Shown here one piece after another: positions 3,026-61,839 of a DNA stretch of 64,000 nucleotides. Position numbers and translations under genes: made by a program. The stretch is from positions 3,976-67,975 of the forward strand of contig CAMMZC010000003.1 in the NCBI GenBank assembly GCA_946529215.1, read 5' to 3'. Every line of letters starts with the position of its first letter. Position 1 is the first letter of the stretch. Under the pieces are notes generated by a model, which saw only the letters and a list, made by a program, of their open reading frames with translations, searched no databases and had not been told where the DNA came from. The stretch comes from an uncultured Clostridia bacterium (GTDB taxonomy: Bacteria > Bacillota > Clostridia > TANB77 > CAG-508).

Positions 3026-4108
3026 TTAAATAAATTTTCTTGGAACCCTATCTGAAATAGTACACATAATTTCATAATTTATAGTATTACATTTATCTGC
3101 AAGTTGCTCAAGAGTAATATTTTCGTTATCCCAGATTATTACATCATCACCTAATTTTACATTATCTATTTCTGTAACATCTGCCATAAAACTGTCCATA
3201 CAAACCTTTCCTATAATAGGTGCTTTTTTGCCATTAATTAAAACTTTCCATCCATTTGAAAAATCTCTTCTAAAGCCATCTGCATAACCAATTGGAATTG
3301 TTGCAACTTTTGTTTCTTTTTCTGTTATAAAGCTTCTTCCATAACCAATACTTGTTCCTTTTTCTACAGTTTTTAGAAATGTAATCTTAGACTTTAAACT
3401 TGCAATTGGTTTTAGATTTATTTTTTCAAAAGTATTTTCTGCACCTGCATATCCATATAGAATTATCCCAGGTCTTACAAGATTAAAATGAGCTTCAGGA
3501 TAATTAAGTAAAGCATTTGATGCTGCTGCATGTATATATTTTATATCTCCTAAAATTTCTTTAGCCTTTTGAACTGCAATTTTAAAAGATTTTAATTGAT
3601 GCATAGAATACTCATCATCTACATCTGCTGCAGAAAAATGTGTGTAAATTCCTTCAACTTTAATATTTGAGCCTAAACTCTTTATGTATTGTTCAATTTT
3701 GTATGGATGAACTCCTGTTCTTCCCATTCCTGTTCCAACTTCAACATGGACTATAACGTTTTTGCCTGTTTCTGCCAATTTCTCCGCAAATTCGTAAGAA
3801 CTTATTCCAACAACTATATTATATTGGATTATTTTTTCTATTTCACTTTCATAAGGTTGATTTAATACGAATATTTCTTTTTCATATCCTATGTTTCTTA
3901 AATTTACAGCTTCATCTACATTTGCAACTGCCACAATATTAAATTTGTTTAATACTTCTAGCCTTTTGTTAATATATGTTCCATATCCATTTGCCTTTAT
4001 AACAGGCATAAGCTGAACATTTTCTCCAACATATTTTTGAATTTGTTCAATATTAAACTCTAAATTTTTTAAATTTACTTCCATATATGTAGGTCTAGTG
4101 ATTTCCAT
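3026..4108 (-). CDS. alr: Alanine racemase
   Basis: 360 aa. N-terminal PLP-binding region (VIKANGYG...) and overall alanine racemase architecture. Confidence 0.88.
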   Translation of the reverse strand: MEITRPTYMEVNLKNLEFNIEQIQKYVGENVQLMPVIKANGYGTYINKRLEVLNKFNIVAVANVDEAVNLRNIGYEKEIFVLNQPYESEIEKIIQYNIVVGISSYEFAEKLAETGKNVIVHVEVGTGMGRTGVHPYKIEQYIKSLGSNIKVEGIYTHFSAADVDDEYSMHQLKSFKIAVQKAKEILGDIKYIHAAASNALLNYPEAHFNLVRPGIILYGYAGAENTFEKINLKPIASLKSKITFLKTVEKGTSIGYGRSFITEKETKVATIPIGYADGFRRDFSNGWKVLINGKKAPIIGKVCMDSFMADVTEIDNVKLGDDVIIWDNENITLEQLADKCNTINYEIMCTISDRVPRKFI

Positions 4109-16499: not shown

Positions 16500-18575
16500 T
16501 TATTGATTTTTTAATTTTAATATGTTGATTGTTTCCATAGTTTCTTTAGACTTCTCGTTATCTTTGCCATATACTTTGCATTGTAATTTGTATAATTTTT
16601 CGTATAACTCTAGCGAATTATTATATTTTTTCATTTTTTTATAAATACTAGCTAAATTATTTAAATTCCTTAATGTATTTGGATGAGTTTTCCCTAATGT
16701 TTCTTCACTCTTTTTATATGCTTCTTTTCCAAATTTTATAGCATTATCATAATTTTCTATATCACTATAATAAGTTGCAAGATTGTTTAACGATGTTAAT
16801 GTGTTAGGATGAGAGTCTCCCAATATTTCCTTTAATTTATTATAAACTATTTCACCTAATTTTACAGCTTTATTATAATTTCCCGTATGATTATAATAAT
16901 AAGAAAGATTATTTAAGCTTCTAAATGTATCTGGATGCTCATATCCTAATGTCTCTTTTCTATTTTTGTATACCTTTTCTCCTAACCTTATTGCTTCTTT
17001 ATAATCTTTTTTATAATTATAATAAATTGCAAGTCTGTTTAAACTTGTTAATGTATTTGGATGAGTTTTGCCTAATGTTTCTTTTCTTTTTTTATACACA
17101 TCTTTTCCGAGTTTTATTGCCATATCATAATTTCCTATATTACTGTAACTGACAGCTAGATTATTTAAACTAGTTAATGTATCAATATGAGTTTCTCCTA
17201 AACTTTCTTCTCTTTTTCTATATACTTCTTCTCCAAGTTTTATTGCTATATCATACTTTCCAATATCATCATAACCTCTCGCTATATTATTTAAACTATC
17301 TAATGTATATAAATTATTCTCTCCTAATACTTCTTTTTGGATTTTATAGCATTCATTGTTTACTTCCAATGCTTTGTTATAATCACCTGTATTTCTATAA
17401 GCAACAGCCAATTTAGTTAAACTTATCAATGTATTTAAATGTTTTTCTCCTAATTCTTTTTTATCTTTTTCATATACCTTTTTTTGCCACTCTAAAGCTT
17501 TTTTATAATCTAATTTTGTTCCTTTACCTTCTTCATATATATATACAAGCTCTTTCATTGCTTCTTTACATTCAAGATTTCCTGATTGTTCAAGCAGTTT
17601 TATTCCTTTTTCTTTATTTACTTCAACATCAATGCCATTTAAATATGCTAATCCTATAAAGTATAAGTGTTTTGGATCATCATTTTCCCTCCATGCTTCA
17701 TTTATTAAATACTTTTTTAAAGATTCACTTAAAAGCTCTGTATCATTTACTTTAATCGGAACAGGTATTTCTTTATATTTTTTTTGTAATTCTTCTTTAC
17801 TTGTATCTACCGCTTCAATTGGAACTATATTTTTACATTCTTTTTTAGCATTTGGATATTCTATTTTTTCCACATAGTTTTCTTCATTTACTAGATTTGG
17901 CGTTACAACCATTGCAAATAATTTACTTTTCTTCAAAGCTTCCTCTATTGACTCATTAAAATCTTGCCCTGGCTTTAAAAACTCATCATACCAAATTGCA
18001 ATATCTCTGCAAAATTCATTTTCATGAATTAAATGCATTATGTTTTCAGCATGTTTTTTGTCTTTTTTTCTATAACTTAAAAATATATATGCATCAAAAG
18101 CTTCTTGAACCTGTTTTCTCAATTCATCACTTACTAATACTGATTCTATATATTCTTTTAATTTACTTTTATATTTTTCTTCTCCAACAACTAACTTACT
18201 TAATGCTTGAAGGTTTCCACATTTTTCGTTAAAGTAGCTATCTATATTTGGCTCCATCATTATTGGCAAAATTGGAATATGATTATCCATTGCATATTGA
18301 AATTCTACTACTCTTGCATCACATTCTTCTGATATAAATTTCCATGTTACAGGTATCACAAATAAGTTTATTTGGCTCAAGTCATCTATAATTTCTCTTG
18401 AATTAATATTTTTATCAGCTTTATAATAAATTACACAATTTCTTATATCTAGAATTTCTTCAGTTATCTCTTCAAAATATTTATCAAAATCATTTTGATA
18501 GCAACAAAAATATACTCTTGATTTATCTTTTAGTTCTTTTCCTCTTGTTTTATATTTTAACTTTATTTCTTCCAT
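16500..18575 (-). CDS. Tandem TIR-like domains + TPR (TPR_10/12-type) repeat protein
   Basis: 691 aa. Residues about 160-300 match the TIR pattern (YIFLSYRKKD...IAIWYDEFLKPGQDF...FAMVVTPNLVNE). Residues about 15-150 are a second TIR/DUF4062-like module (RVYFCCYQNDFDKYF...). The C-terminal half holds about 8 TPR repeats ending in SLNNLA..Y/ LGK.HPNTL. Confidence 0.7.
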   Translation of the reverse strand: MEEIKLKYKTRGKELKDKSRVYFCCYQNDFDKYFEEITEEILDIRNCVIYYKADKNINSREIIDDLSQINLFVIPVTWKFISEECDARVVEFQYAMDNHIPILPIMMEPNIDSYFNEKCGNLQALSKLVVGEEKYKSKLKEYIESVLVSDELRKQVQEAFDAYIFLSYRKKDKKHAENIMHLIHENEFCRDIAIWYDEFLKPGQDFNESIEEALKKSKLFAMVVTPNLVNEENYVEKIEYPNAKKECKNIVPIEAVDTSKEELQKKYKEIPVPIKVNDTELLSESLKKYLINEAWRENDDPKHLYFIGLAYLNGIDVEVNKEKGIKLLEQSGNLECKEAMKELVYIYEEGKGTKLDYKKALEWQKKVYEKDKKELGEKHLNTLISLTKLAVAYRNTGDYNKALEVNNECYKIQKEVLGENNLYTLDSLNNIARGYDDIGKYDIAIKLGEEVYRKREESLGETHIDTLTSLNNLAVSYSNIGNYDMAIKLGKDVYKKRKETLGKTHPNTLTSLNRLAIYYNYKKDYKEAIRLGEKVYKNRKETLGYEHPDTFRSLNNLSYYYNHTGNYNKAVKLGEIVYNKLKEILGDSHPNTLTSLNNLATYYSDIENYDNAIKFGKEAYKKSEETLGKTHPNTLRNLNNLASIYKKMKKYNNSLELYEKLYKLQCKVYGKDNEKSKETMETINILKLKNQ

Positions 18576-26819: not shown

Positions 26820-26984
26820 ATCAGATCATTCCTCTCTTAAATACTTATAGTTGTTTAATTCTTCTTTTCTTAAACTAAATCATTATTTTAAATACACATA
26901 TATAATAGCACTTGAATAAAAAAAATGCAATCAAAACTTTAAAAATAAAAAGATTTTTATGTAATCAAATTTTTAAGCGCAAAA

Positions 26985-27195
26985 AATCCCCGCTGTAGCC
27001 GTAACTTGTGCCAAAATTTTTAACAACCTGCTCTCACAAACAGGTGGGTGCCTACCTAAATACTCATGGGCTTCTTACTACTATTATATTGCAAAAAGTG
27101 TAAGCTTGCACGCCATATTCAGAGTTCAGCCCCTCTTTAAACTTGTAGGTTCTAAAAATTCTGCAATACGCACTATGCAGGGGTTTTGTTTAATT
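26985..27195 (+). ncRNA. Candidate structured small RNA of unknown class (6S-like or other)
   Basis: About 210-bp non-coding segment with clearly higher GC than its flanks, lying between two minus-strand genes. The 5' end CCCCGCTGTAG can pair with the 3' end CTATGCAGGGG, followed by TTTT. Internal hairpins include GGTGGG-TG-CCTACC and CCTAC...GTAGG. GU pairs favour the plus strand. Confidence 0.3.
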
Positions 27196-33455: not shown

Positions 33456-33644
33456 TTACAATTCACAACCGAAAATATTTTTTTATAAAAGTTAATATAT
33501 AAATTATTTGTAATTAAATGTGGGGACCGTTCAATGATTTCCAAAAGTTTGAAAAACTTTTGATGAAATCATTAGAATGGGGATAATGTAAAATAATTTA
33601 TATATTAACTTTAACCCGTACAACAATTAGCTGAAAATTGTAAC
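33456..33644. repeat. Repeat family B copy 1 (ttacaattcaca...core) with internal 20-bp near-perfect palindrome, in nrdD 5' region
   Basis: 33456..33483 ttacaattcacaaccgaaaatatttttt and 33599..33644 tatatattaactttaacccgtacaacaattagctgaaaattgtaa match 43776..43866 at about 90% identity. The central insert holds the palindrome ttcaatgatttccaaaagttt-g-aaacttttgatgaaatcattagaa. Confidence 0.55.
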
Positions 33645-34423: not shown

Positions 34424-35401
34424 TTATACATCTGCTTTTTTACTTTCTTCTATTTCTTTTTGAAAATTATTATAAGCTTCATTCCAAGCCTCAAAACTTT
34501 TGTCTTCTCTATGATCTGGAAGATCATTGTTATTTTTCAAATACTCACCAAGATAACTTGTTACTTTTAAAGCACCTGTGTAATTTAAATGCTCTCCCCT
34601 TTTTTCTTGACAATCTTTTTTCCAATTAATTTTTAATTCATCAACCTTTAAATTTAAGTCAATATATTCTATTCCTAATTTTTTTGCGATTTTTTCTATT
34701 CCATTGTGTTTATCATAATTCCAATTTGCAGGTGATGGTGAATTATACAGCATAAATTTTGCATCATTTTTTTTACATAAATCTTTAATTTCTTTTAAAT
34801 GTTTTATATTATCACTAGGTACTTTTTTAGAAACTTCATTTTCCTTCATGAAGTTATCTCTTTTGCTCTTCTTTACTTTATTGGTCTTAGTGCTAAATCT
34901 ATATCCTTTATCATTTACTATTTCTGTATATTCAGGTGTTTTATAAAAATCCTCTTTGGTTAAATTTTTCCATCTATCATGAAATTCCAAAACTGGAAAA
35001 TATTTATCAACATATTCTTTTAAATGGCGCACATATCCATTTTTAGTATATAAAGCATTTGCTTCTAAAATAACAATTTTAGGCTTTTGTCTTTTAAAAG
35101 CTACATTTAAATAATAGTAACTATTAGAAATACGCTGTGCAGGTGTCCCACAAACATAAGAAGTAAATCCATATTGATTCCATAGTTCTAGAGGTATATA
35201 TGAATTATATGATTCACTATCTCCAAGTACTATAACATCTATAGTATTTTCTGGCTCAGTATAAATTCCTGTTACAAGTTGTTTTCTTTTTCCTATTCCA
35301 GCTTCTAAAGTATTGTTTTTTGGTACAAATATTTTTGAAAGTAAAGCTAAAATTATAAAAAATATGCCTACAAAAACAATACATTTTATTGTCCTTTTCA
35401 T
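34424..35401 (-). CDS. DltD-like protein (membrane-anchored SGNH-type)
   Basis: 325 aa. N-terminal signal/anchor. Sits last in an operon with DltA/DltC/DltB-like genes. Family assignment rests on context and general similarity. Confidence 0.5.
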   Translation of the reverse strand: MKRTIKCIVFVGIFFIILALLSKIFVPKNNTLEAGIGKRKQLVTGIYTEPENTIDVIVLGDSESYNSYIPLELWNQYGFTSYVCGTPAQRISNSYYYLNVAFKRQKPKIVILEANALYTKNGYVRHLKEYVDKYFPVLEFHDRWKNLTKEDFYKTPEYTEIVNDKGYRFSTKTNKVKKSKRDNFMKENEVSKKVPSDNIKHLKEIKDLCKKNDAKFMLYNSPSPANWNYDKHNGIEKIAKKLGIEYIDLNLKVDELKINWKKDCQEKRGEHLNYTGALKVTSYLGEYLKNNNDLPDHREDKSFEAWNEAYNNFQKEIEESKKADV

Positions 35402-35578
35402 TTTACATCTCTCTTTCTATTAAAATACTTTTTATTATTGGCATTTTAGTGTATATTTTAATAATGCGCGTAAGCAACCAAACGAGCATAGCGGGTGCGA
35501 TTGGATCAACTTACAAACAAGTCATTTAGAATATGGAAGTTGCGACACACAATCATTATAAAAATATACACAAAAAAA

Positions 35579-37168
35579 CTAAAAATTAGCATACATTGGC
35601 TGTACTGCCTCATAGTTGATTCCATAAGCTCCAAATAAAAGTATTGCAAAAATTATTAAATAGTAAATAGTCCATCTAATAACTATATTTTTCTTAGAAA
35701 TTTTTTCTCTAACACTTATATCTTTTTCATGCATTATGCTAATTACAAACACTAAAATTGTAAATATAGCAATAATTATAAAATCTTGCACATCCATTCC
35801 AAGTTTTAGAATTGTTCCATCTTTAAATGAATTTAATGAGAAATTTGTAAACATCTTACCAAGCATCTCAAATCCTGATGTAACTGTTGTTGCTCTGAAG
35901 AATAACTCTCCAACAAAAACAAGTAATGTAGTTTTTATTATTTGCAATCCTTTATACCACGCTTTTTCTCTATTTATGTGTAATTTCGCACTAATCCACA
36001 AAACTGCAGGCTCAAATATTTTGCCTGATAAAATAAGTACAAAATGATACATTCCAAAAAATATAAAAGTCCAAGCTGCTCCATGCCAAAGTCCATTACA
36101 GAACCATACACAAAATAGTGCAATAGCACTTGCAATTAATGGTCCATAATATTTTCCAATTTTCTTTCTAGCATTTGTTGTTAATTTTTTTAATGGCTCA
36201 GAAAGTGATAATGGATAAAATATGTAATCTCTGAAAAATGCCCCTAAAGTTATATGCCATCTTGTCCAAAATTCTGATATGTTTTTTGAGAAAAATGGTT
36301 GTTTGAAATTTTCTGGTAATTTTATTCCAAAAATTTCTGATGTTCCAATTACCATATCCATTGTTCCTGAAAAATCCATATAAAGCTGTAATGTATAAAG
36401 AACCATACCAGCTACCATAATTCCGCCATCATATTTTGCATAATTTCGATATATTTCACCTATAAATCTGTTTAGCCTATCTGCAATAATCATTTTCTTA
36501 ATCATACCATAGCTAATTCTTAATAATCCGCTTTTTAAGTTAGCATAAGTAATCTTGTTTCCTTCCCATAATTGCATTGCAGTTTCTGAATATCTGCAAA
36601 TTGGGCCTTCCATAATTTGTGGGAAGAATGTTAAATATAAACTAAGTCTTGCAATATTTTTGTCTGCCTTAATTTTTTCGTGATATATGTCAACCAAATA
36701 CGAAACTGCTTGTAAAGTATAGAATGATATACCTATTGGCATTAATATTTTTGGTATTTGTAGCTTGAATGGTATTTTTAAAGTTTGTAATAAAGAATTT
36801 ACATTTCCACCAATAAATCCTATATATTTTACTACTAACAAAATACCAATATTTACTAAAACTCCAAATGTTAGTACTCTTCTTTGTTTTTTTAAATACT
36901 CTGCTCTTATTTTCTTTTTTTGTTCTTTTTCTGCTTCTTTTAAAATTCCATTTCTTTCATTTTGTAATAGTTCGAGCCAAATTCCTATATAATGTATTAA
37001 AAATGTAGAGCCTATTACATACACAATTAATTTTTTGCTTATAGACCAAAAAAATGCATAGCTAGCAAGCAATAGCACTTTCCATCTGTGTTTTTGTGGA
37101 ACTATGCTATAAGCAATTAATGTTAAAGGAAGAAACATAAAAAGATATGCTACTCCAAAATATGTCAT
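35579..37168 (-). CDS. MBOAT family O-acyltransferase (DltB/AlgI-like)
   Basis: 529 aa polytopic membrane protein. FWTRWHITLGAFFRDYIFYPL contains the MBOAT catalytic His motif. Confidence 0.85.
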   Translation of the reverse strand: MTYFGVAYLFMFLPLTLIAYSIVPQKHRWKVLLLASYAFFWSISKKLIVYVIGSTFLIHYIGIWLELLQNERNGILKEAEKEQKKKIRAEYLKKQRRVLTFGVLVNIGILLVVKYIGFIGGNVNSLLQTLKIPFKLQIPKILMPIGISFYTLQAVSYLVDIYHEKIKADKNIARLSLYLTFFPQIMEGPICRYSETAMQLWEGNKITYANLKSGLLRISYGMIKKMIIADRLNRFIGEIYRNYAKYDGGIMVAGMVLYTLQLYMDFSGTMDMVIGTSEIFGIKLPENFKQPFFSKNISEFWTRWHITLGAFFRDYIFYPLSLSEPLKKLTTNARKKIGKYYGPLIASAIALFCVWFCNGLWHGAAWTFIFFGMYHFVLILSGKIFEPAVLWISAKLHINREKAWYKGLQIIKTTLLVFVGELFFRATTVTSGFEMLGKMFTNFSLNSFKDGTILKLGMDVQDFIIIAIFTILVFVISIMHEKDISVREKISKKNIVIRWTIYYLIIFAILLFGAYGINYEAVQPMYANF

Positions 37169-37238
37169 TTTTATCTTTCCCTTCTCTTACTTCATAATTT
37201 TGTTTTTTTATATCTCAAATTAAAAAGATTTTTGTTTT

Positions 37239-37469
37239 CTACCCTTCTTCTTGCAAACGTGTAATCATTTCCCACATAGCTTTTGCAGAATTAAAGTTAT
37301 CTGGTATTATTTCTACTGTTGGTATTACAATGTCAAATTCATCTTCTAGCTCTGCAACAAGTGAAATGATTGCAAGTGAATCTAAATAATGCTCATCTAT
37401 TAAAGTTGTGCAATTTTCGTAATCTACTCCATCTTCTATTTCTTCTAAAATTTCAATTAATCTTTCCAT
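37239..37469 (-). CDS. D-alanyl carrier protein-like (DltC-type acyl carrier protein)
   Basis: 76 aa, acidic. Phosphopantetheine attachment motif LDSLAIISLV. Confidence 0.75.
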   Translation of the reverse strand: MERLIEILEEIEDGVDYENCTTLIDEHYLDSLAIISLVAELEDEFDIVIPTVEIIPDNFNSAKAMWEMITRLQEEG

Positions 37470-37600
37470 TTTTAACTTCCTTTCTAGGGACAGATTTCAG
37501 TTCCCATTTTACTTTAATATTTATTAACCTTTATTTATGAACTTTAGTTTATTATATATTTTATCAATAGCCAATTTCTCTTGGGGAAATACGTTCTTTT

Positions 37601-37804
37601 TTTTAAAAAATTTCGACGCACCCCCTTTTTTGGCACAAGCATAAGGATTAGCGGTAATCAATTTTTAGCGTTATTTTTGTTTAAAATCTCGCATTTTTTT
37701 ATAAAAGTCGTTATTTTTTAATCTCATTAATTTTAGCGATATTATTATATTAGGTATGATGCGTCTTGTTTGATTACAATTTTTGCGTCCAAATTTTTTA
37801 AAAA
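37601..37804. repeat. Repeat family A copy 1: about 205-bp element bounded by about 20-bp inverted repeats (MITE-like or structured RNA)
   Basis: Arms ttttaaaaaatttcgacgca (37601..37620) and tgcgtccaaattttttaaaaa (37784..37804) are reverse complements with 1 mismatch. The 5' about 60 bp (cgacgcaccccctttttttggc...aggattagcggtaatc) is shared with copy 2 at 51464..51669. Confidence 0.6.
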
Positions 37805-37915
37805 TTTTATATATTATCTATATGTTTTTAAAAATTTAAGCTTATTTAACATAATAGTTTTTCTTATTTAATGATTGAATTTTAAAGATATTTTTATTAA
37901 TGAAAGTTCAGCCTG

Positions 37916-39160
37916 TTAAAAATAATAACTTGCCTTGTTTAAAGTATATGTTTCAAATGCCTCTCTTACTAATTTGAGTTTTCCACCTTTAAGTAAAGCA
38001 ACTTCTGGCAATTCTCTACTTAAAAATAGTGAAATTCCTTCTGTCATACAATAAGCTCCTGTGTTTTTAAATATAAACACATCTCCTACTTGTAAATTAC
38101 TTACAGGATATTGTTTTATAATTATATCATTTATTGTACAAAGTGAACCCATAAGATTCCAAGCTTCTGTATTGTTGTTATCTTGCTCTGTTTTTTTGTT
38201 TTCACGCTCTTCTTTATTATCGTCTTGCTCAATATTAGTGTTATCTCGCAATTGATATATTTCAAGATGTGGAAACTTCATTGCCATTGTTTGTCCATAA
38301 TAAACTAAGTGATGAATTCCTCCATCTAGTATAGCATAATTTTGACACTTATTTGTCTTTTTGTCAACTACTTTTGTTAAATAATATCCACAAGAAGCCG
38401 CAATGCTTCTGCCAAGCTCAATTACAATTTTTCCTTTATATTTCATATTGTCAATTCCGTTAGAGAATTCTTTTAAAAATTCTACTTCATCAAATTCTTC
38501 TCCTTGGAAATAATGCACAGGAAAACCTGTTCCAAATTCAAGCTCTTCTACTATGTAGTTATATTTTTCTTCTAGTCTTGCTAAAAACTCATCTAAATAA
38601 TCTATTTCTTTTTGAAGCCTTTTGTTTGTTCTTTTTTGAGTTCCTGAAAAATATTGAATTCCTTCAAAATTCAAGTTTGTATAAGAATCTTTTTTAGATA
38701 TTATTTCTTCTATATCTTCTTCATTTATTCCAAATTGATTTCCACTTGTAAGTCTAAGTAAAACATTTAGTTTTACATTATGTTTTTTTGAAAGTTCATC
38801 TAAAAGCTTTAACTGTTCTTGCGACTCAACTGTGTATCTTCCAATTTTTTTGTTTGATGTGATCATATATTCTATTACACTTGGAGTTTTATACACTCCA
38901 GAAATAACTATTTTTTCAGGTGTAATACTTGATTCTTCACATATGCTGTATTCCCCTGGAGAACATACTTCAAATCTGTCTACATCATCATTTATTTCTT
39001 TTACAATAAATGTATTTGCTTTTATTGCATAACATAGTTCAAGCCTATTTGTTAAATTTTCTCTTAAAAATCTAATTCTTTGTTTTAGCTTGTCAATGTC
39101 AAATACATAAATTGGTGTTTCATATTTTTTTAAGATTTTTTCTATAATTTCTTGTTTCAT
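37916..39160 (-). CDS. PLP-dependent decarboxylase, Orn/DAP/Arg decarboxylase family 2 (fold type III)
   Basis: 414 aa. YAIKAN PLP-lysine motif near the N-terminus. DAP-decarboxylase-like length and layout. Confidence 0.72.
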   Translation of the reverse strand: MKQEIIEKILKKYETPIYVFDIDKLKQRIRFLRENLTNRLELCYAIKANTFIVKEINDDVDRFEVCSPGEYSICEESSITPEKIVISGVYKTPSVIEYMITSNKKIGRYTVESQEQLKLLDELSKKHNVKLNVLLRLTSGNQFGINEEDIEEIISKKDSYTNLNFEGIQYFSGTQKRTNKRLQKEIDYLDEFLARLEEKYNYIVEELEFGTGFPVHYFQGEEFDEVEFLKEFSNGIDNMKYKGKIVIELGRSIAASCGYYLTKVVDKKTNKCQNYAILDGGIHHLVYYGQTMAMKFPHLEIYQLRDNTNIEQDDNKEERENKKTEQDNNNTEAWNLMGSLCTINDIIIKQYPVSNLQVGDVFIFKNTGAYCMTEGISLFLSRELPEVALLKGGKLKLVREAFETYTLNKASYYF

Positions 39161-39221
39161 TTTTTCTCCTTCATTATTATATTTGATTAAAAAATCTACG
39201 CACTGAAAAAAGTAATTTTTA

Positions 39222-40727
39222 TTATTTTTTTAAGATTAGTGCCAACTCTTTCCTATCAATCTTCCCATTTTTAGTAATTGGAAATTTCTCTATTTGAGTA
39301 ATTTTATTAGGGACCATAAATACCGGTAAATTTTCTTTCAAATATTTAACAACTTCATCTTTTTCTATATTTCCAACATAAAAGCCATAAAGTTTTCCTT
39401 TTTGCTCATTAAATAAGCAGCAACTTCTTTCAACTCCAGTTACTTTTTCCATTGCTCTTTCTATTTCTTCAAGCTCAATTCTATGTCCCATGTGTTTTAT
39501 TTGAAAATCTTTCCTTCCCATAAAAACAATTTCGCCATCTTTGTTATATGTACCTAAATCTCCTGTTTTATATATCATATCTATATATTTGTCATTTAAA
39601 GGATTTTGCACAAAATGTGATGAAGTTTGTTCTTTGTTGTTAAAATACCCTAATGCTAAACAAGTTCCTTTTACACAAATTTCACCCTGTGTGTCTGCAT
39701 CTGTAATTAGTTTATCATCTTCATCTAATAAAAGCACTTGCTCATTTGGAAATGGCTTTCCTGCTGGGATTTTTTCGTAATTTAAATTTTTGTCTACTAT
39801 ATGATATGTGCAATTACATGTAATTTCTGTTGGTCCATATAAATTAACATACATTGCATTTGGCAAATGTTCTATCCATTGTTTTAAATGCTTAATTGGC
39901 ATTACTTCTCCACTAAACATAACTTTATTTACTGTTTCTGGTGTTTTGTAATCTAATGCATGGAAAGTTGTAATTAAGCAAAGTGCAGATACTGCCCAAA
40001 TAAGAGTTGTAACTTTGTTGTTGCAAATATAGTCAAGTAATTCTGCAGGTAGAGAAAATAGCCTTTTAGGAATTATGACTAGAGTTGCACCTTGCGAAAT
40101 ACTTGAATATATATCTTTTACAGATACATCAAAATCAAATGGTGCTTGATTTCCTATAATATCGTTTTCTGTTATATTAAAAATCTCAGTAAAATTATCT
40201 ATAAAGTCAATTACAGACCTATTTCCAACCAATACTCCTTTTGGCACACCTGTTGAACCTGAGGTAAAATTCGCATATAGTGGGTCTAAGTCAAGTGCAG
40301 CGTTTCTTATTTCTTTTAGCTTAGTTTCTCCTATTTCTGTGTTTTTTAAATCTTCTAATAATAAAATGTCTTCTTTATTTATTAACTCTGCTGCTATTTC
40401 TTCATGTGCTTTATCTGTAACAATATTTTTCGCACCTAAAACATTTATTATATGTTCTAGTCTTACTTTGGGTAAATCTGGATTTAGCAAAACATAAAAA
40501 CAACCTGCATATACTGCTCCAAAAAACGTTGCTAATGTATCTTTTCCTTTTTCCATTAAAACTGGCACAGGATTTCTTGGCTCATAATATTTGCTTAATC
40601 CTGTTCCTATTTTTTTGCTTAAATTTGTTAATTCTTTGTATGTATATTTTCCTTTTTCATCTATTACTGCTATTTTCTCACTATTTTTTTGAGTACTATT
40701 TTCTAAGTATTCTAATACTGTTTTCAT
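39222..40727 (-). CDS. AMP-binding adenylation enzyme, D-alanine--D-alanyl carrier protein ligase (DltA)-like
   Basis: 501 aa. FTSGSTGVPKGV adenylation core. Length and context with the DltC/DltB-like genes. Confidence 0.8.
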   Translation of the reverse strand: MKTVLEYLENSTQKNSEKIAVIDEKGKYTYKELTNLSKKIGTGLSKYYEPRNPVPVLMEKGKDTLATFFGAVYAGCFYVLLNPDLPKVRLEHIINVLGAKNIVTDKAHEEIAAELINKEDILLLEDLKNTEIGETKLKEIRNAALDLDPLYANFTSGSTGVPKGVLVGNRSVIDFIDNFTEIFNITENDIIGNQAPFDFDVSVKDIYSSISQGATLVIIPKRLFSLPAELLDYICNNKVTTLIWAVSALCLITTFHALDYKTPETVNKVMFSGEVMPIKHLKQWIEHLPNAMYVNLYGPTEITCNCTYHIVDKNLNYEKIPAGKPFPNEQVLLLDEDDKLITDADTQGEICVKGTCLALGYFNNKEQTSSHFVQNPLNDKYIDMIYKTGDLGTYNKDGEIVFMGRKDFQIKHMGHRIELEEIERAMEKVTGVERSCCLFNEQKGKLYGFYVGNIEKDEVVKYLKENLPVFMVPNKITQIEKFPITKNGKIDRKELALILKK

Positions 40728-42965: not shown

Positions 42966-43382
42966 TTAGTTTGCTATAGCTAATTTAAGTTCTTTTATTT
43001 CATTTTCATTTGAAATAATTCTAGCTTCTAACTTAGCATCGCGTTCATAGGTTATAGAGGATACTACATTTATTGCATTAACTACATCTTCTACTATTTC
43101 TTCTTTTTGTTTCTTTAAATCTTCTTTAAATTCTGCTCTTAATTCTTTTAAATCTTCTTTAAATTCTGCTCTTAATTCTTTTAAATCTTCTTTAGTTGCA
43201 AATTTCTTTAAGTCTTCTTTAGTTGCAAATTTCTTTAAGTCTTCTTTAGTTGCAAATTTCTTTGCTTCTTCTTTTGTAACCATATTTTTCAACTCACTTC
43301 TTATTTCGTCTAAAGCTGTTTGAAAATTATTAAATCCTTTTAATAATGTAATAAGTATATCATCTCTTTCTTTATTAGTCAT
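42966..43382 (-). CDS. Coiled-coil tandem-repeat protein (hypothetical)
   Basis: 138 aa with peptide repeats (KKFATKEDL)x3 and (KELRAEFKEDL)x2, encoded by perfect DNA tandem repeats. Confidence 0.5.
   Translation of the reverse strand: MTNKERDDILITLLKGFNNFQTALDEIRSELKNMVTKEEAKKFATKEDLKKFATKEDLKKFATKEDLKELRAEFKEDLKELRAEFKEDLKKQKEEIVEDVVNAINVVSSITYERDAKLEARIISNENEIKELKLAIAN
43120..43275. repeat. Intragenic perfect tandem DNA repeats (2 x about 42 bp and 3 x 30 bp)
   Basis: aattcttttaaatcttctttaaattctgctctt repeated twice, then aagtcttctttagttgcaaatttcttt repeated three times. A potential length-variable locus. Confidence 0.85.
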
Positions 43383-43775: not shown

Positions 43776-43866
43776 TTACAATTCACATCCGAAAATATTT
43801 TTTTAGTAAATGTAAATATTTATATATTAACTTTAAACAGTACAACAATAAGCTGTGAATTATATC
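43776..43866. repeat. Repeat family B copy 2 (short form)
   Basis: ttacaattcacatccgaaaatattttttt...tatatattaactttaaacagtacaacaataagctgtgaatta matches both halves of copy 1 (33456..33644). It lies 7 bp downstream of the MBL hydrolase stop. Confidence 0.55.
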
Positions 43867-51318: not shown

Positions 51319-51463
51319 AAATTTTTCCTCCTTTAAAAAATCTGAATTTATTATATTATTTTTTTCATTTTAAGTCAATACATTTTTTTAGTTTTTTATT
51401 TATTGTAGTTACTGGTTAACGATTTTAAAAAAAAATTAAAGTAATTCGATTTTAGTATATATT

Positions 51464-51669
51464 TTTTTGAAAAAATTTCGACGCACCCCTTTTTTTGGCT
51501 ATAACGTGAGGATTAGCTGTAATCCATTTTAAGCACATTGCAAGTCTTTAAAAAGCAGTTTCTTAATAAAATAAGTTTATTTTTAATCTTCGTAAGATAT
51601 AAATACACATTTATAGTATGTTTCATATTCTTAATTTAGTCGAGATTTTTGCGTACAAATTTTTCAAAA
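51464..51669. repeat. Repeat family A copy 2 (about 206 bp with terminal inverted repeats)
   Basis: Arms tttttgaaaaaatttcgacgca (51464..51485) and tgcgtacaaatttttcaaaa (51650..51669). 5' core cgacgcacccctttttttggc...gaggattagctgtaatcc is shared with copy 1. Confidence 0.6.
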
Positions 51670-51717
51670 TCAATATAATATAATCACAAAATATTACTTT
51701 CTAATCTATTAATAAAT

Positions 51718-52605: not shown

Positions 52606-53937
<1,332 letters not shown>

Positions 53938-53945
53938 TTATATAG

Positions 53946-54043
53946 GAAAAATCGTCAGATTTTTGTGTATATAAAAAGACAAAGTTTCCTATATTTGCGC
54001 GATTGCTTTGCAATCTGCGCAGTGGCGAAGCCACTTTTCTTAT
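53946..54043. repeat. Repeat family C copy 1: conserved promoter-proximal module upstream of eno
   Basis: aaaaatcgtcagatttttgtgtatataaaaagacaaagtttcctatatttgcgcgattgctttgcaatctgcgc...ccacttttcttat matches 61066..61162 upstream of gap at about 85% identity. Contains the palindromes AAAAATC-n4-GATTTTT and gattgc-ttt-gcaatc. Confidence 0.6.
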
Positions 54044-54249
54044 ATTTTAATGAATATATAAGTATTTTAAGAAGTAATCTTAGTTAACTAAATAGCTTAA
54101 AAATTCTTAATAATTTTGCAAGGGAATCTAAAAACAAATTTTTTTAGGGTGCTTGTAAAATTAATTAGAATTTTTAGCGTTAAATGAAAGTTACCTAAGA
54201 TTATTCGAAAAATACATATATATTCATTTAATTCACAAAATTAAATACA

Positions 54250-60002: not shown

Positions 60003-61019
60003 CTAATTTAATTCTGCAAAATACTTAATAGTTCTAACCATCTGACTAGTATATGAATTTTCATTATCATACCAAGCAACTACTTGTACTTGATATAAAT
60101 CATCTGCAAGCTTCATACACATTGTTTGTGTACTATCAAATAATGAACCACATGTAATTCCAATAATATCTGAAGATACTAATGGCTCATCTGTATATCC
60201 AAATGAAGCACTTTCTTGAGCTTTCATTGCTGCATTTATAGAATCTGGTGTAATATCTGTTCCTTTAACAACTGCTGTTAAAATTGTTGTTGATCCTGTA
60301 GGAACTGGAACTCTTTGTGCTGATCCAATTAATTTCCCATTTAATTCAGGTATAACTAGTCCAATTGCTTTAGCAGCTCCTGTTGAGTTTGGTACAATAT
60401 TTACTGCTGCAGCTCTTGCTCTTCTTAAATCACCTTTTCTGTGTGGACCATCTAATAACATTTGGTCTCCAGTATATGCATGAACTGTTGTCATTATTCC
60501 TGATTGGATTGGTGCATAATCATTTAATGCTTTTGCCATTGGTGCTAAGCAGTTTGTTGTACAAGAAGCAGCTGAAATAACTGTATCTTCTTTCTTTAAT
60601 ATGTTTTCATTAACTCCAAATACTACTGTTGGTAAATCACTTCCTGCAGGTGCTGATATAACAACTTTTTTAGCACCAGCTCTTATATGAGCTTCTGCTT
60701 TTTCTTTTGTTGTATAAAATCCTGTACATTCTAATACAACGTCTACATCTAATTCTCCCCATGGTAATTGAGACGCATCTGCCATTGCATATATTTTTAT
60801 TGTTTTTCCATCTACTGTTATAGAGTCTTCTCCTGCTACTACTGTATCTGCCTTATCATATCTTTTTTGACATGAATCATATTTTAATAAATGAGCTAAC
60901 ATTTTTGGACTTGTTAAGTCGTTTATTGCAACAACCTCATATCCTTCTGCTCCAAACATTTGTCTAAATGCTAGACGTCCTATTCTTCCAAAACCATTAA
61001 TGGCTACTTTTACTGCCAT
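60003..61019 (-). CDS. gap: Glyceraldehyde-3-phosphate dehydrogenase
   Basis: 338 aa. INGFGRIGR and [10 protein letters not shown] motifs. Confidence 0.95.
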
Positions 61020-61065
61020 AAAAATTCCTCCTTTTTATTTAGCTTCATATATTTTATTATAAAGC

Positions 61066-61162
61066 AAAAATCGTTAGATTTTTGTGAATATAAAAAGACA
61101 AAGTTTCTTATATTCGTGCGATTGCAAAGCAATCTGTACATATGCGAAGCTACTTTTCTTAT
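61066..61162. repeat. Repeat family C copy 2 upstream of gap
   Basis: See copy 1. Here the hairpin loop reads aaa rather than ttt. Similarity continues weakly for about 100 bp further upstream (ttttgcaag...atttttttt). Confidence 0.6.
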
Positions 61163-61298
61163 TTTGCCTTTTTAAGACAATTTTATTCTATACTATTAAT
61201 AGTTTTTTTGCAAGTGTTTTTCAAAAATTTTTTTTAAATATTTAGACTCTTCATCAAAAAAAAATATACTAACACTATTAACTAGTAATCAGTATATT

Positions 61299-61574
61299 TT
61301 AGTTGTTATAATGACCTTTACAAGAAATAATTTTCACGCAATCATTATCTATTGTATAAACTATTCTATTTACATCATCTATTCTTCTACTCCAAAATCC
61401 CAACAAGTTATCTTTTAGAGGTTCAGGTTTTCCAATGCCTTCATAAAAATTTCTATTTATGTCTTTTATTAATAAATTGATTCTTTTTAAAGTCTTTTTG
61501 TCCTGTTTTTGCCAATAGCAATAATCTTGCCACGCTCTTTCTTCCCATAAAATTTTCATATTATTTATCATCAT
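61299..61574 (-). CDS. yoeB: YoeB/Txe-family type II toxin
   Basis: KILWEERAWQDYCYWQKQDKK...GKPEPLKDNLLGFWSRRIDDVNRIVY...KGHY. Start ambiguous (ATG at 61574, 61571 or 61559), overlapping the antitoxin stop. Confidence 0.8.
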   Translation of the reverse strand: MMINNMKILWEERAWQDYCYWQKQDKKTLKRINLLIKDINRNFYEGIGKPEPLKDNLLGFWSRRIDDVNRIVYTIDNDCVKIISCKGHYNN

Positions 61575-61839
61575 CCTCTATTAAATCATGCTCTTCAAAT
61601 TTTGCTTTTCCTGTTTTAATATCAGATACAATTTTTTCAAGATATTCTATATTACTTTTAGAATAAAATGGGTCTATTTTTATTTCAAATGGTAATCTTC
61701 TTTCTCTTAGTACTGTTTTTATAAACATATTTATTGCTACTGATACATTCATACCTGCTTCATTACAAAATAATTCAAAATTCTTTTTATCTAATTCATT
61801 AACTCTTACACTTAAATTTGTTTGAGCCATAAAAATCAC
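61561..61839 (-). CDS. RelB/DinJ-type (RHH) antitoxin paired with YoeB
   Basis: 92 aa. MAQTNLSVRVNELDKKNFELFCNEAGMNVSVAINMFIKTVLRERRLPFEI is a DinJ/RelB N-domain. Acidic C-terminus. Confidence 0.7.
   Translation of the reverse strand: MIFMAQTNLSVRVNELDKKNFELFCNEAGMNVSVAINMFIKTVLRERRLPFEIKIDPFYSKSNIEYLEKIVSDIKTGKAKFEEHDLIEDDDK

Follow-up and report, generated by a model that had tools for sequence, protein, structure and literature searches.

A conserved five-gene cassette of gut and rumen Firmicutes as a candidate carrier-protein-dependent MBOAT-SGNH system for envelope acylation with a decarboxylated amino acid

Which acyl group does a dlt-like operon load onto its carrier protein when the gene of a pyridoxal phosphate (PLP)-dependent decarboxylase stands among its members? 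D-alanylation by the Dlt proteins is the paradigm for surface-charge tuning in Gram-positive bacteria, for resistance to cationic antimicrobial peptides and for interaction with host immunity. We addressed this question in a stretch of 64,000 nucleotides (hereafter “the window”) from an uncultured Clostridia bacterium (GTDB lineage Bacillota; Clostridia; TANB77; CAG-508), located at positions 3,976 to 67,975 of contig CAMMZC010000003.1 in assembly GCA_946529215.1. Five minus-strand open reading frames (ORFs) at 34424-40727 encode, in this order, an amino-acid adenylation enzyme, a decarboxylase, a carrier protein, an MBOAT-family acyltransferase, and an SGNH-fold protein (Table 1), i.e., the same genes and order as read in the initial annotation of this DNA, and all five are intact. 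We consider it somewhat probable, at slightly better than an even chance, that this cassette performs a carrier-protein-dependent MBOAT-SGNH acylation of an envelope polymer with an amino acid decarboxylated on the carrier, and not a D-alanylation.

We first consider the conservation of the cassette. An alignment of decarboxylase orthologues was searched against one genome per species, yielding 210 relatives, of which the best 80 loci were kept. The five genes occurred in identical order in ~78 of these 80 loci (tblastn), the loci without a full cassette being cut off by the end of a contig or, once, rearranged, and the median intergenic gaps were -4, 10, 1, and 12 bp. Because the same five genes are found in the same order in nearly all of these loci from different species, their arrangement is not due to chance. 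The proposal that the decarboxylase is truly part of the dlt-like system was thus supported by synteny in ~80 species, often with translational coupling. Hosts include uncultured Clostridia, Oscillospiraceae, Lachnospiraceae, Erysipelotrichales, and Acetobacterium species, as well as Traorella massiliensis, Catenibacillus scindens, Thomasclavelia spiroformis, and Ruminococcus bromii, while the closest named relative of the window is the goat-omasum Clostridia metagenome-assembled genome L003 (~87–91% amino-acid identity). RefSeq names for these proteins are generic (“amino acid adenylation domain-containing protein”, “phosphopantetheine-binding protein”, “MBOAT family O-acyltransferase”, and “hypothetical protein”), with decarboxylase orthologues named “diaminopimelate decarboxylase family protein” or “alanine racemase”.

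The cassette shares the overall design of Dlt systems, i.e., an adenylation enzyme, a phosphopantetheinyl carrier, an MBOAT, and a membrane-anchored SGNH protein in one operon, with a predicted relay of the acyl group from a tyrosine to a serine. Among solved structures, the carrier and the MBOAT core are nearest to DltC and DltB: the carrier is best matched by DltC as resolved in the DltB-DltC complexes 8jf2 and 6bug (E 5e-7), and the only PDB sequence relatives of the MBOAT are DltB chains (8jem, 6bug; E 1e-23), aligned at residues 141-415 only. The label “dlt-like” given in the initial annotation therefore holds for the architecture but not for Dlt orthology, as none of the four proteins reaches the cut-offs of the Dlt hidden Markov models (HMMs). 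Specifically, the adenylation enzyme scores 277 bits against a DltA equivalog cut-off of 560 (TIGR01734) and 290 against 476 (NF003417), while it passes the generic amino-acid adenylation model TIGR01733 (321 bits, cut-off 317). The carrier scores 32.6 bits against a DltC cut-off of 68 (NF003464) and 18 against 52 (TIGR01688), the MBOAT scores 169.7 bits against 375 for the DltB model TIGR04091, and the 325-aa SGNH-fold protein has no Pfam or NCBIfam match, DltD included, at E up to 1.

The binding pocket of the adenylation enzyme bears on the identity of the loaded group. Its specificity code was read from a joint alignment of 80 orthologues, GrsA-PheA, and Bacillus subtilis DltA, and both references were checked: GrsA was an exact match to PDB 1AMU, with the numbering giving DAWTIAAICK, and DltA differed from 3E7W by three mismatches, none at code positions. 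The code reads DVKIMSLC(N/C)K in the window and DVK[ITV][LM]SLCCK across the family, compared to DLMTMCTV(A/V)K in B. subtilis DltA, with D235, M299, and K517 as the only positions common to the window enzyme and DltA. The residues that contact D-Ala in Bacillus cereus DltA (L198, M200, C269, and V301) correspond to V236, K239, S301, and C330, respectively, in the window, and four of the five positions listed in the review differ (PMC11253843). An exact match to the D-Ala specificity residues, which would have spoken for alanine according to the initial annotation, was thus not found, as the pocket is not D-Ala-type. Instead, D235 (which binds the amino group) and K517 are kept, so that the substrate should be an amino acid, and Lys239 is invariant in 80/80 orthologues. 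From the sequence, this invariant lysine suggests an acidic amino acid as the substrate: a cationic residue at position 239 is typical of domains activating acidic amino acids (e.g., the Glu code DAKDLGVVDK), and Lys239 would be sensible only with a second carboxylate still on the substrate at loading. In addition, bulkier residues at positions 236 and 301 have been tied to the binding of beta-amino acids, as in VinN (F231/S299) and in engineered TycA (A236V; PMC11253843), and V236 and S301 of the window enzyme fit such bulkier, beta-amino-acid-type residues. This pocket, together with the conserved decarboxylase, supports the suggestion of a loaded group other than plain alanine.

For the decarboxylase, the catalytic residues expected of a fold-type III enzyme (K47, E248-x-G-R251, D279-G-G, C341, and Y370) are invariant in 81 of 81 orthologues. 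It is not a true lysA product, the example of a well-known neighbor named in the initial annotation: the match to the LysA model TIGR01048 falls in two stretches and totals 168.3 bits (cut-off 297.9), and the best NCBIfam match is TIGR03099, an uncharacterized exosortase-A-associated decarboxylase (170 bits). Among solved structures, BtrK is the closest in sequence (E 3e-31, 112 bits, over the full length), followed by SbnH (99 bits), with the best diaminopimelate (DAP) decarboxylase at 78 bits; DAP decarboxylases in the PDB align well to residues 7-286 only, mainly the N-terminal domain, and poorly to the C-terminal domain. The same ranking was obtained by fold, for which a Foldseek search with the AlphaFold2 model returned BtrK as the best match (template modelling score 0.79–0.83), then SbnH, then DAP decarboxylases. 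The specificity-helix segment is DGG(I/M)HH in both the window enzyme and BtrK, as opposed to AGMND in the Aquifex DAP decarboxylase 2p3e. BtrK is deposited as “L-glutamyl-[BtrI acyl-carrier protein] decarboxylase”, and the substrates of BtrK and SbnH are amino acids with a conjugated far end, as an acyl-carrier protein thioester and a citryl amide, respectively (PMC7857480). An intact fold-type III decarboxylase encoded beside a carrier and an ATP-dependent loader is also the setting of BtrK, CtaF, VinO, and FlvO. Taken together, sequence and model make the decarboxylase most similar to enzymes acting on carrier-tethered amino acids, and such an action is predicted here.

Alternatively, the PLP enzyme might have another activity in the cell than the one predicted, such as a racemization or epimerization of the free or carrier-bound amino acid, or a beta-decarboxylation of alpha-linked Asp-S-carrier to Ala-S-carrier, so that the system would deliver a D-amino acid or alanine. 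The enzyme does match PF01168, the N-terminal domain of alanine racemase, at 44 bits, some RefSeq orthologues carry the name “alanine racemase”, and Dlt systems use a D-amino acid. However, the enzyme contains PF00278, a C-terminal sheet domain specific to decarboxylases, the E-x-G-R and DGG motifs, Cys341, and Tyr370 are invariant, and the best matches by both sequence and fold are all decarboxylases, leaving this alternative improbable. Separately, residues ~309-330 of the window enzyme (window 38170-38235) form a low-complexity insertion (~21 residues) with abundant Asn, Asp, Glu, and Lys, which is particular to this lineage compared to orthologues of 391-397 aa, and in which the AlphaFold2 predicted local distance difference test (pLDDT) is <50.

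The export side of the cassette combines features of two known types of system. The MBOAT is ~100 aa longer than DltB (~400 aa), with C-terminal hydrophobic segments at 453-484 and 493-522, and its catalytic His305 is invariant. The last six residues before the stop codon read P-[IML]-Y-A-x-F in 76/76 full-length orthologues, with Tyr526, Ala527, and Phe529 kept in all 76. In Dlt systems, the acyl-shuttle hexapeptide FXYXXF is found on the microprotein DltX, whereas PatA-type acetyl-CoA systems bear it on two extra transmembrane helices at the MBOAT C-terminus, and the acyl group travels on the Tyr of the hexapeptide from the MBOAT to the serine of the SGNH protein (PMC12148441). No DltX-like ORF with a C-terminal Tyr motif was found in the two largest intergenic gaps (decarboxylase-carrier and MBOAT-SGNH), a search that did not extend upstream of the adenylation gene. 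Judged by its sequences, the cassette joins the Dlt design (adenylation enzyme and carrier) with the PatA design (Tyr motif on the MBOAT). Non-Dlt MBOAT-SGNH systems are without a carrier protein and use acyl-CoA (PMC12148441); since the cassette encodes an adenylation enzyme and a carrier, its donor should be an aminoacyl-S-carrier. The phosphopantetheine-attachment residue Ser31 of this carrier is kept in 80/80 orthologues. In the relative L003 (L003:9948-10764), the best MBOAT match covers the C-terminal half only, with ~800 bp between the carrier gene and the match, and this MBOAT may be disrupted or the assembly faulty.

The last protein of the cassette was assigned from its AlphaFold2 model, which has an SGNH fold (pLDDT 93.6) and an N-terminal helix at residues 2-25. 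Foldseek matches in the PDB include TesA (3e-6), a sialate O-acetylesterase, PatB (7tlv, 2e-4), and DltD (6pfx, 4.5e-4), the latter at rank 45, and G60 and S62 of the GDS block as well as H271 are kept in 72/72 orthologues. On this modeled structure, we predict a functional analogue of DltD or PatB, and not a demonstrable member of the DltD family.

With these results, the possibility of an ordinary dltABCD D-alanylation operon with an inserted lysine-biosynthesis lysA can be evaluated. The gene order does resemble dltA-(x)-dltC-dltB-dltD, and DltA, DltC, and DltB are among the best-scoring families or structures for three of the proteins. In contrast, all Dlt equivalog scores are far under their cut-offs and the last protein leaves the DltD Pfam unmatched, four D-Ala contacts are replaced in the pocket, the decarboxylase is under the lysA cut-off and syntenic in ~80 species, and the MBOAT is longer, with a fused shuttle motif and no DltX in the two largest gaps. 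We rejected this candidate, already largely refuted, on HMM cut-offs, pocket code, and synteny, and consider it scarcely credible.

The favored pathway, i.e., acylation of an envelope polymer with an amino acid decarboxylated on the carrier, would proceed as follows. The adenylation enzyme would activate an acidic amino acid, most likely L-Asp and otherwise L-Glu, and join its side-chain carboxyl as a thioester to the phosphopantetheine arm of the carrier (76 aa). The PLP decarboxylase would then strip the free alpha-carboxyl on the carrier, leaving beta-alanyl-S-carrier or gamma-aminobutyryl-S-carrier. At the cytoplasmic face, the MBOAT (His305) would take the aminoacyl group and transfer it to its own Tyr526 at the outer face, from which Ser62 of the SGNH protein would accept it for transfer to a hydroxyl group on teichoic acid, lipoteichoic acid (LTA), or a polysaccharide. 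Such a transfer would add positive charge to the envelope polymer, and the physiological role is probably charge modulation or resistance to cationic peptides. Between the two possible substrates, Asp to beta-Ala is favored over Glu to gamma-aminobutyrate (GABA), because GABA thioesters and esters cyclize readily to the lactam while beta-alanyl esters do not, and because no amine-protecting enzyme is encoded in the cassette. Butirosin biosynthesis, for its part, protects the amine.

Each biochemical step on the carrier has a precedent. Asp or Glu is loaded by its side-chain carboxyl onto a carrier by BtrJ/BtrI, CtaD/CtaE, FlvN/FlvL, and VinN/VinL, after which the Orn/DAP-family PLP enzymes BtrK, CtaF, FlvO, and VinO remove the alpha-carboxyl, so that the carrier bears GABA, beta-alanine, or 3-aminoisobutyrate (PMC11350588; PMC11284099). 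For VinN/L/O, thioester formation is needed before decarboxylation (PMC11284099), and the clostridial CtaF is inactive on free Asp (PMC7183216). These enzymes bear on a second alternative, in which a free dicarboxylic amino acid is decarboxylated first (Asp giving beta-Ala, Glu giving GABA, or meso-DAP giving Lys) and the product is loaded for MBOAT/SGNH transfer. This would be the simplest reading of an operon supplying its own substrate, and it is consistent with a clade of the enzyme that includes DAP decarboxylases (PMC7857480), with fold scores near those of BtrK, and with the alpha-type length of the beta13-beta14 loop in the adenylation enzyme. Nevertheless, we judge it unlikely: the invariant Lys239 is hard to square with the loading of beta-Ala, GABA, or Lys, the nearest characterized relative works on a carrier-bound substrate and CtaF refuses free Asp, the score is below the lysA cut-off with a C-terminal domain that aligns poorly to DAP decarboxylases, and the decarboxylase gene mostly overlaps the carrier gene or lies within 30 bp of it.

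Several points weigh against decarboxylation on the carrier followed by MBOAT-SGNH export. First, the beta13-beta14 loop of VinN has, as a hallmark, one residue fewer than that of GrsA and carries K330/R331 (PMC11253843). By these review criteria, the loop of the cassette enzyme has the GrsA length, with C and N/C at 330/331, so that its sequence looks like that of an alpha-amino-acid domain. Next, side-chain loading by BtrJ and CtaD is achieved by ATP-grasp enzymes and not by adenylation domains, although the loaders VinN and FlvN are adenylation domains, as in the cassette. For the decarboxylase, the fold margin of BtrK over DAP decarboxylases is small (1.6e-28 vs 1.8e-26), even if the sequence margin is clear, the AlphaFold2 model is only moderately confident (pLDDT 77.5), and an on-carrier conversion of meso-DAP to lysine is a possible alternative. 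The tail motif of the MBOAT opens with Pro, compared to the Phe of FXYXXF. The window operon further carries a 446-bp insertion that might be polar, and the window copy has no upstream two-component system, the pair being absent from its lineage. Finally, the substrate, the acceptor, the regiochemistry of loading, and the on-carrier decarboxylation are inferred from sequence and models.

A separate question is what receives the acyl group. No conserved glycosyltransferase or LTA synthase that could serve as a clue to the acceptor was found beside the cassette among the flanks of the examined loci. The product could instead be a small secreted or lipid-linked molecule, such as an aminoacylated glycolipid or a natural product: the precedents for thiotemplated decarboxylation (butirosin, closthioamide, vicenistatin) are all natural-product pathways, and AlmEFG offers a DltA/DltC-like pair serving lipid modification (PMC11253843). 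Against this, no condensation, thioesterase, polyketide synthase, or ATP-grasp gene was found in or beside the cassette, the flanks are conserved only for regulators and ABC exporters, and the combination of an MBOAT, an anchored SGNH protein, and a Tyr shuttle is a hallmark of systems that O-acylate extracytoplasmic polymers (PMC12148441). We thus give this possibility little weight, and favor a polymer of the envelope as the acceptor.

The recurring neighbors of the cassette are a two-component system and ABC exporters, the flanking genes being otherwise not conserved across the 80 loci. A histidine kinase (HisKA and HATPase_c) and an OmpR-type response regulator were found upstream in 42/80 loci when either strand was counted, and of the 65 loci whose upstream sequence was long enough, 24 had a co-directional pair <600 bp from the adenylation gene (e.g., L006:4200-6483). 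ABC exporters were near the cassette in 27 loci. The adjoining two-component pair suggests that the cassette is a regulated envelope-stress output, and this context resembles that of dlt operons, which are under two-component control. In the window, the only neighboring regulator is a convergent Crp-family gene, common to its two closest relatives.

Each module of the cassette has a known counterpart, namely Dlt, BtrK/CtaF/VinO-type decarboxylation, and the PatA-type shuttle, and the novelty would lie in their combination. Compared to Dlt, the cassette differs by a decarboxylase gene between the adenylation-domain and carrier genes, a non-D-Ala pocket, a Tyr motif fused to a longer MBOAT with no DltX in the two largest gaps, and an SGNH protein outside the DltD Pfam family. 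It shares a loader, a carrier, and an Orn/DAP-family PLP decarboxylase with BtrJ/I/K (butirosin), CtaD/E/F (closthioamide), and the macrolactam systems VinN/L/O and FlvN/L/O, but these thiotemplated modules feed natural-product assembly lines whereas the output of the cassette is an MBOAT and an SGNH protein; the cassette also has no amine-protecting second ligase, and its adenylation domain has neither the shortened loop nor the K330/R331 of VinN. With PatA/PatB, AlgI/AlgJ/AlgX, and WssH/WssI, it has in common two extra C-terminal MBOAT helices with a Tyr hexapeptide and a separate SGNH protein, yet PatA/PatB-type systems have no carrier and an acyl-CoA donor (PMC12148441), and the cassette has its own adenylation enzyme and carrier and a motif with Pro instead of Phe. 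A ligase is also paired with a PLP decarboxylase in the exosortase-A (PEP-CTERM) pair TIGR03098/TIGR03099, the former of which is matched by the adenylation enzyme at 195 bits. However, this pair is Gram-negative and uncharacterized, with an acyl-CoA-ligase-type enzyme, and the scores of 170 and 195 bits are far under the cut-offs of 478 and 592. Finally, AlmE/AlmF/AlmG (Vibrio cholerae lipid A) likewise represents a DltA-like and a DltC-like protein repurposed for a non-D-Ala envelope modification (PMC11253843), but AlmG is a lipid A acyltransferase, the substrate is glycine, and neither MBOAT/SGNH nor a decarboxylase is involved.

Extending this reading beyond the window, we tentatively propose, at a little under an even chance, that many gut and rumen Firmicutes, among them uncultured Clostridia, Acetobacterium, Thomasclavelia, and Ruminococcus bromii, use this hybrid pathway to esterify a glycopolymer of their surface with beta-alanyl or gamma-aminobutyryl groups. 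Full-text literature searches, with most subscription journals outside coverage, returned no account of this cassette or of beta-alanylation of the bacterial envelope. If true, this would be an envelope modification new to the literature, in which the acyl group is built on a carrier by decarboxylation and exported by an MBOAT with its own tyrosine shuttle. The cassette would then encode the first MBOAT-SGNH system besides Dlt to depend on a carrier protein, i.e., a second carrier-fed pathway with a different donor chemistry, and would contradict the current view of acyl-CoA donors for fused-motif MBOATs. Two mechanisms would thereby be joined, the thiotemplated decarboxylation of amino acids, to our knowledge restricted to natural-product pathways, and the MBOAT/SGNH acyl-tyrosine relay of envelope biology. 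An omega-aminoacyl (beta-alanyl) ester should outlast an alpha-aminoacyl D-alanyl ester, which could affect the persistence of surface charge in the gut. The cassette is present, under generic RefSeq annotation, in dozens to hundreds of species dominating gut and rumen communities.

Table 1 Features of the cassette and associated elements in the window
Feature	Position	Strand	Basis or remark
Stand-alone amino-acid adenylation enzyme, 501 aa	40727-39222	-	PF00501 (4e-61) and PF13193; DltA-like in architecture, not in specificity
Fold-type III (Orn/DAP/Arg family) PLP-dependent decarboxylase, 414 aa	39160-37916	-	PF02784 and PF00278; CYAIKAN lysine motif
Non-coding repeat, 205 bp, MITE-like	37600-37804		21-nt terminal inverted repeats; between decarboxylase and carrier genes
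Carrier protein, 76 aa	37469-37239	-	PF00550, 23 bits (cut-off 20.8); Ser31 in DSL motif
MBOAT-family membrane acyltransferase, 529 aa	37168-35579	-	PF03062; DltB-like core and two extra C-terminal transmembrane helices
MBOAT C-terminal hexapeptide P-M-Y-A-N-F, predicted acyl-shuttle tyrosine motif	35582-35599	-	C-terminal motif of orthologues
Membrane-anchored SGNH-fold protein, 325 aa, predicted final transferase	35401-34424	-	AlphaFold2 model and Foldseek
Second copy of the inverted-repeat-bounded element	51458-51677		Outside the operon; between ribulose-phosphate 3-epimerase and MIP-channel genes

The repeat reported between the decarboxylase and carrier genes was confirmed as a 205-bp element inside a 446-bp gap, compared to a median gap of 10 bp with frequent overlap in the 80 loci. 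Its arms (37600-37620 and 37784-37804) are 95% complementary and separated by 163 nt, while the second copy has terminal inverted repeats of 28 nt that enclose 164 nt. The two copies are 71% identical over their full length (209-212 nt) and 85% identical in the core, and the inverted-repeat motif was more common in the window than in any of 100 shuffles. The repeat had no Rfam match at E up to 1 and no credible ORF, and a target-site duplication was not callable in the A/T-rich flanks. In public metagenomes, a scan with an exact 30-mer returned no match and no further full-length copies, and a 19-mer scan returned six contigs that match only a 19-30 nt end of the repeat. In L003, the repeat is found at the same site with 79% identity, and it is absent from the loci of 79 other species; it is therefore an inherited, lineage-specific insertion, similar to a miniature inverted-repeat transposable element (MITE), tolerated by the operon and not part of the design of the system. 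A scan of the operon for promoters and terminators was uninformative, with counts equal to the shuffled expectation and no minus-strand terminator within the insertion.

The cassette lies in a housekeeping neighborhood, with surrounding genes for glycolysis, RNase Y, RecJ, RelA, S6/SSB/S18, a TcdA-like ThiF protein, and NrdD. The window has a G+C content of ~27% and is identical to part of a 123-kb metagenome scaffold. A window-wide Rfam scan at gathering thresholds returned two tRNAs and a 6S RNA gene (26983-27186, minus strand; RF00013, 76 bits) only.

Other repeated sequences were observed away from the cassette. A leader of ~115 nt is found at 53933-54046 and 61052-61165, with a core 84% identical, directly upstream of two glycolytic genes, enolase (52606-53913, minus strand) and GAPDH (60003-61019, minus strand). 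It had no Rfam match at the gathering threshold, and may be a common promoter/operator or leader RNA of glycolytic genes. A two-part direct repeat, 87–88% identical, is found at 33456-33495 and 33596-33642 and again at 43776-43815 and 43818-43864, upstream of nrdD and of a 138-aa coiled-coil gene (42966-43382), respectively, and may represent a shared regulatory region. The same 138-aa ORF contains, at 43083-43281, tandem repeats of 27 and 33 nt encoding heptad-like KEDLKKFAT/KEDLKELRAEF units. Within a 691-aa ORF (16500-18575), a 126-nt unit is repeated five times in tandem at 16587-17390 (64–71% identical), corresponding to 42-residue modules. Lastly, a RelB/YoeB-type toxin-antitoxin pair lies among housekeeping genes at ~61299-61830 on the minus strand, as identified with Pfam on the matching scaffold (L090, 2084-2615) with coordinates converted to the window.

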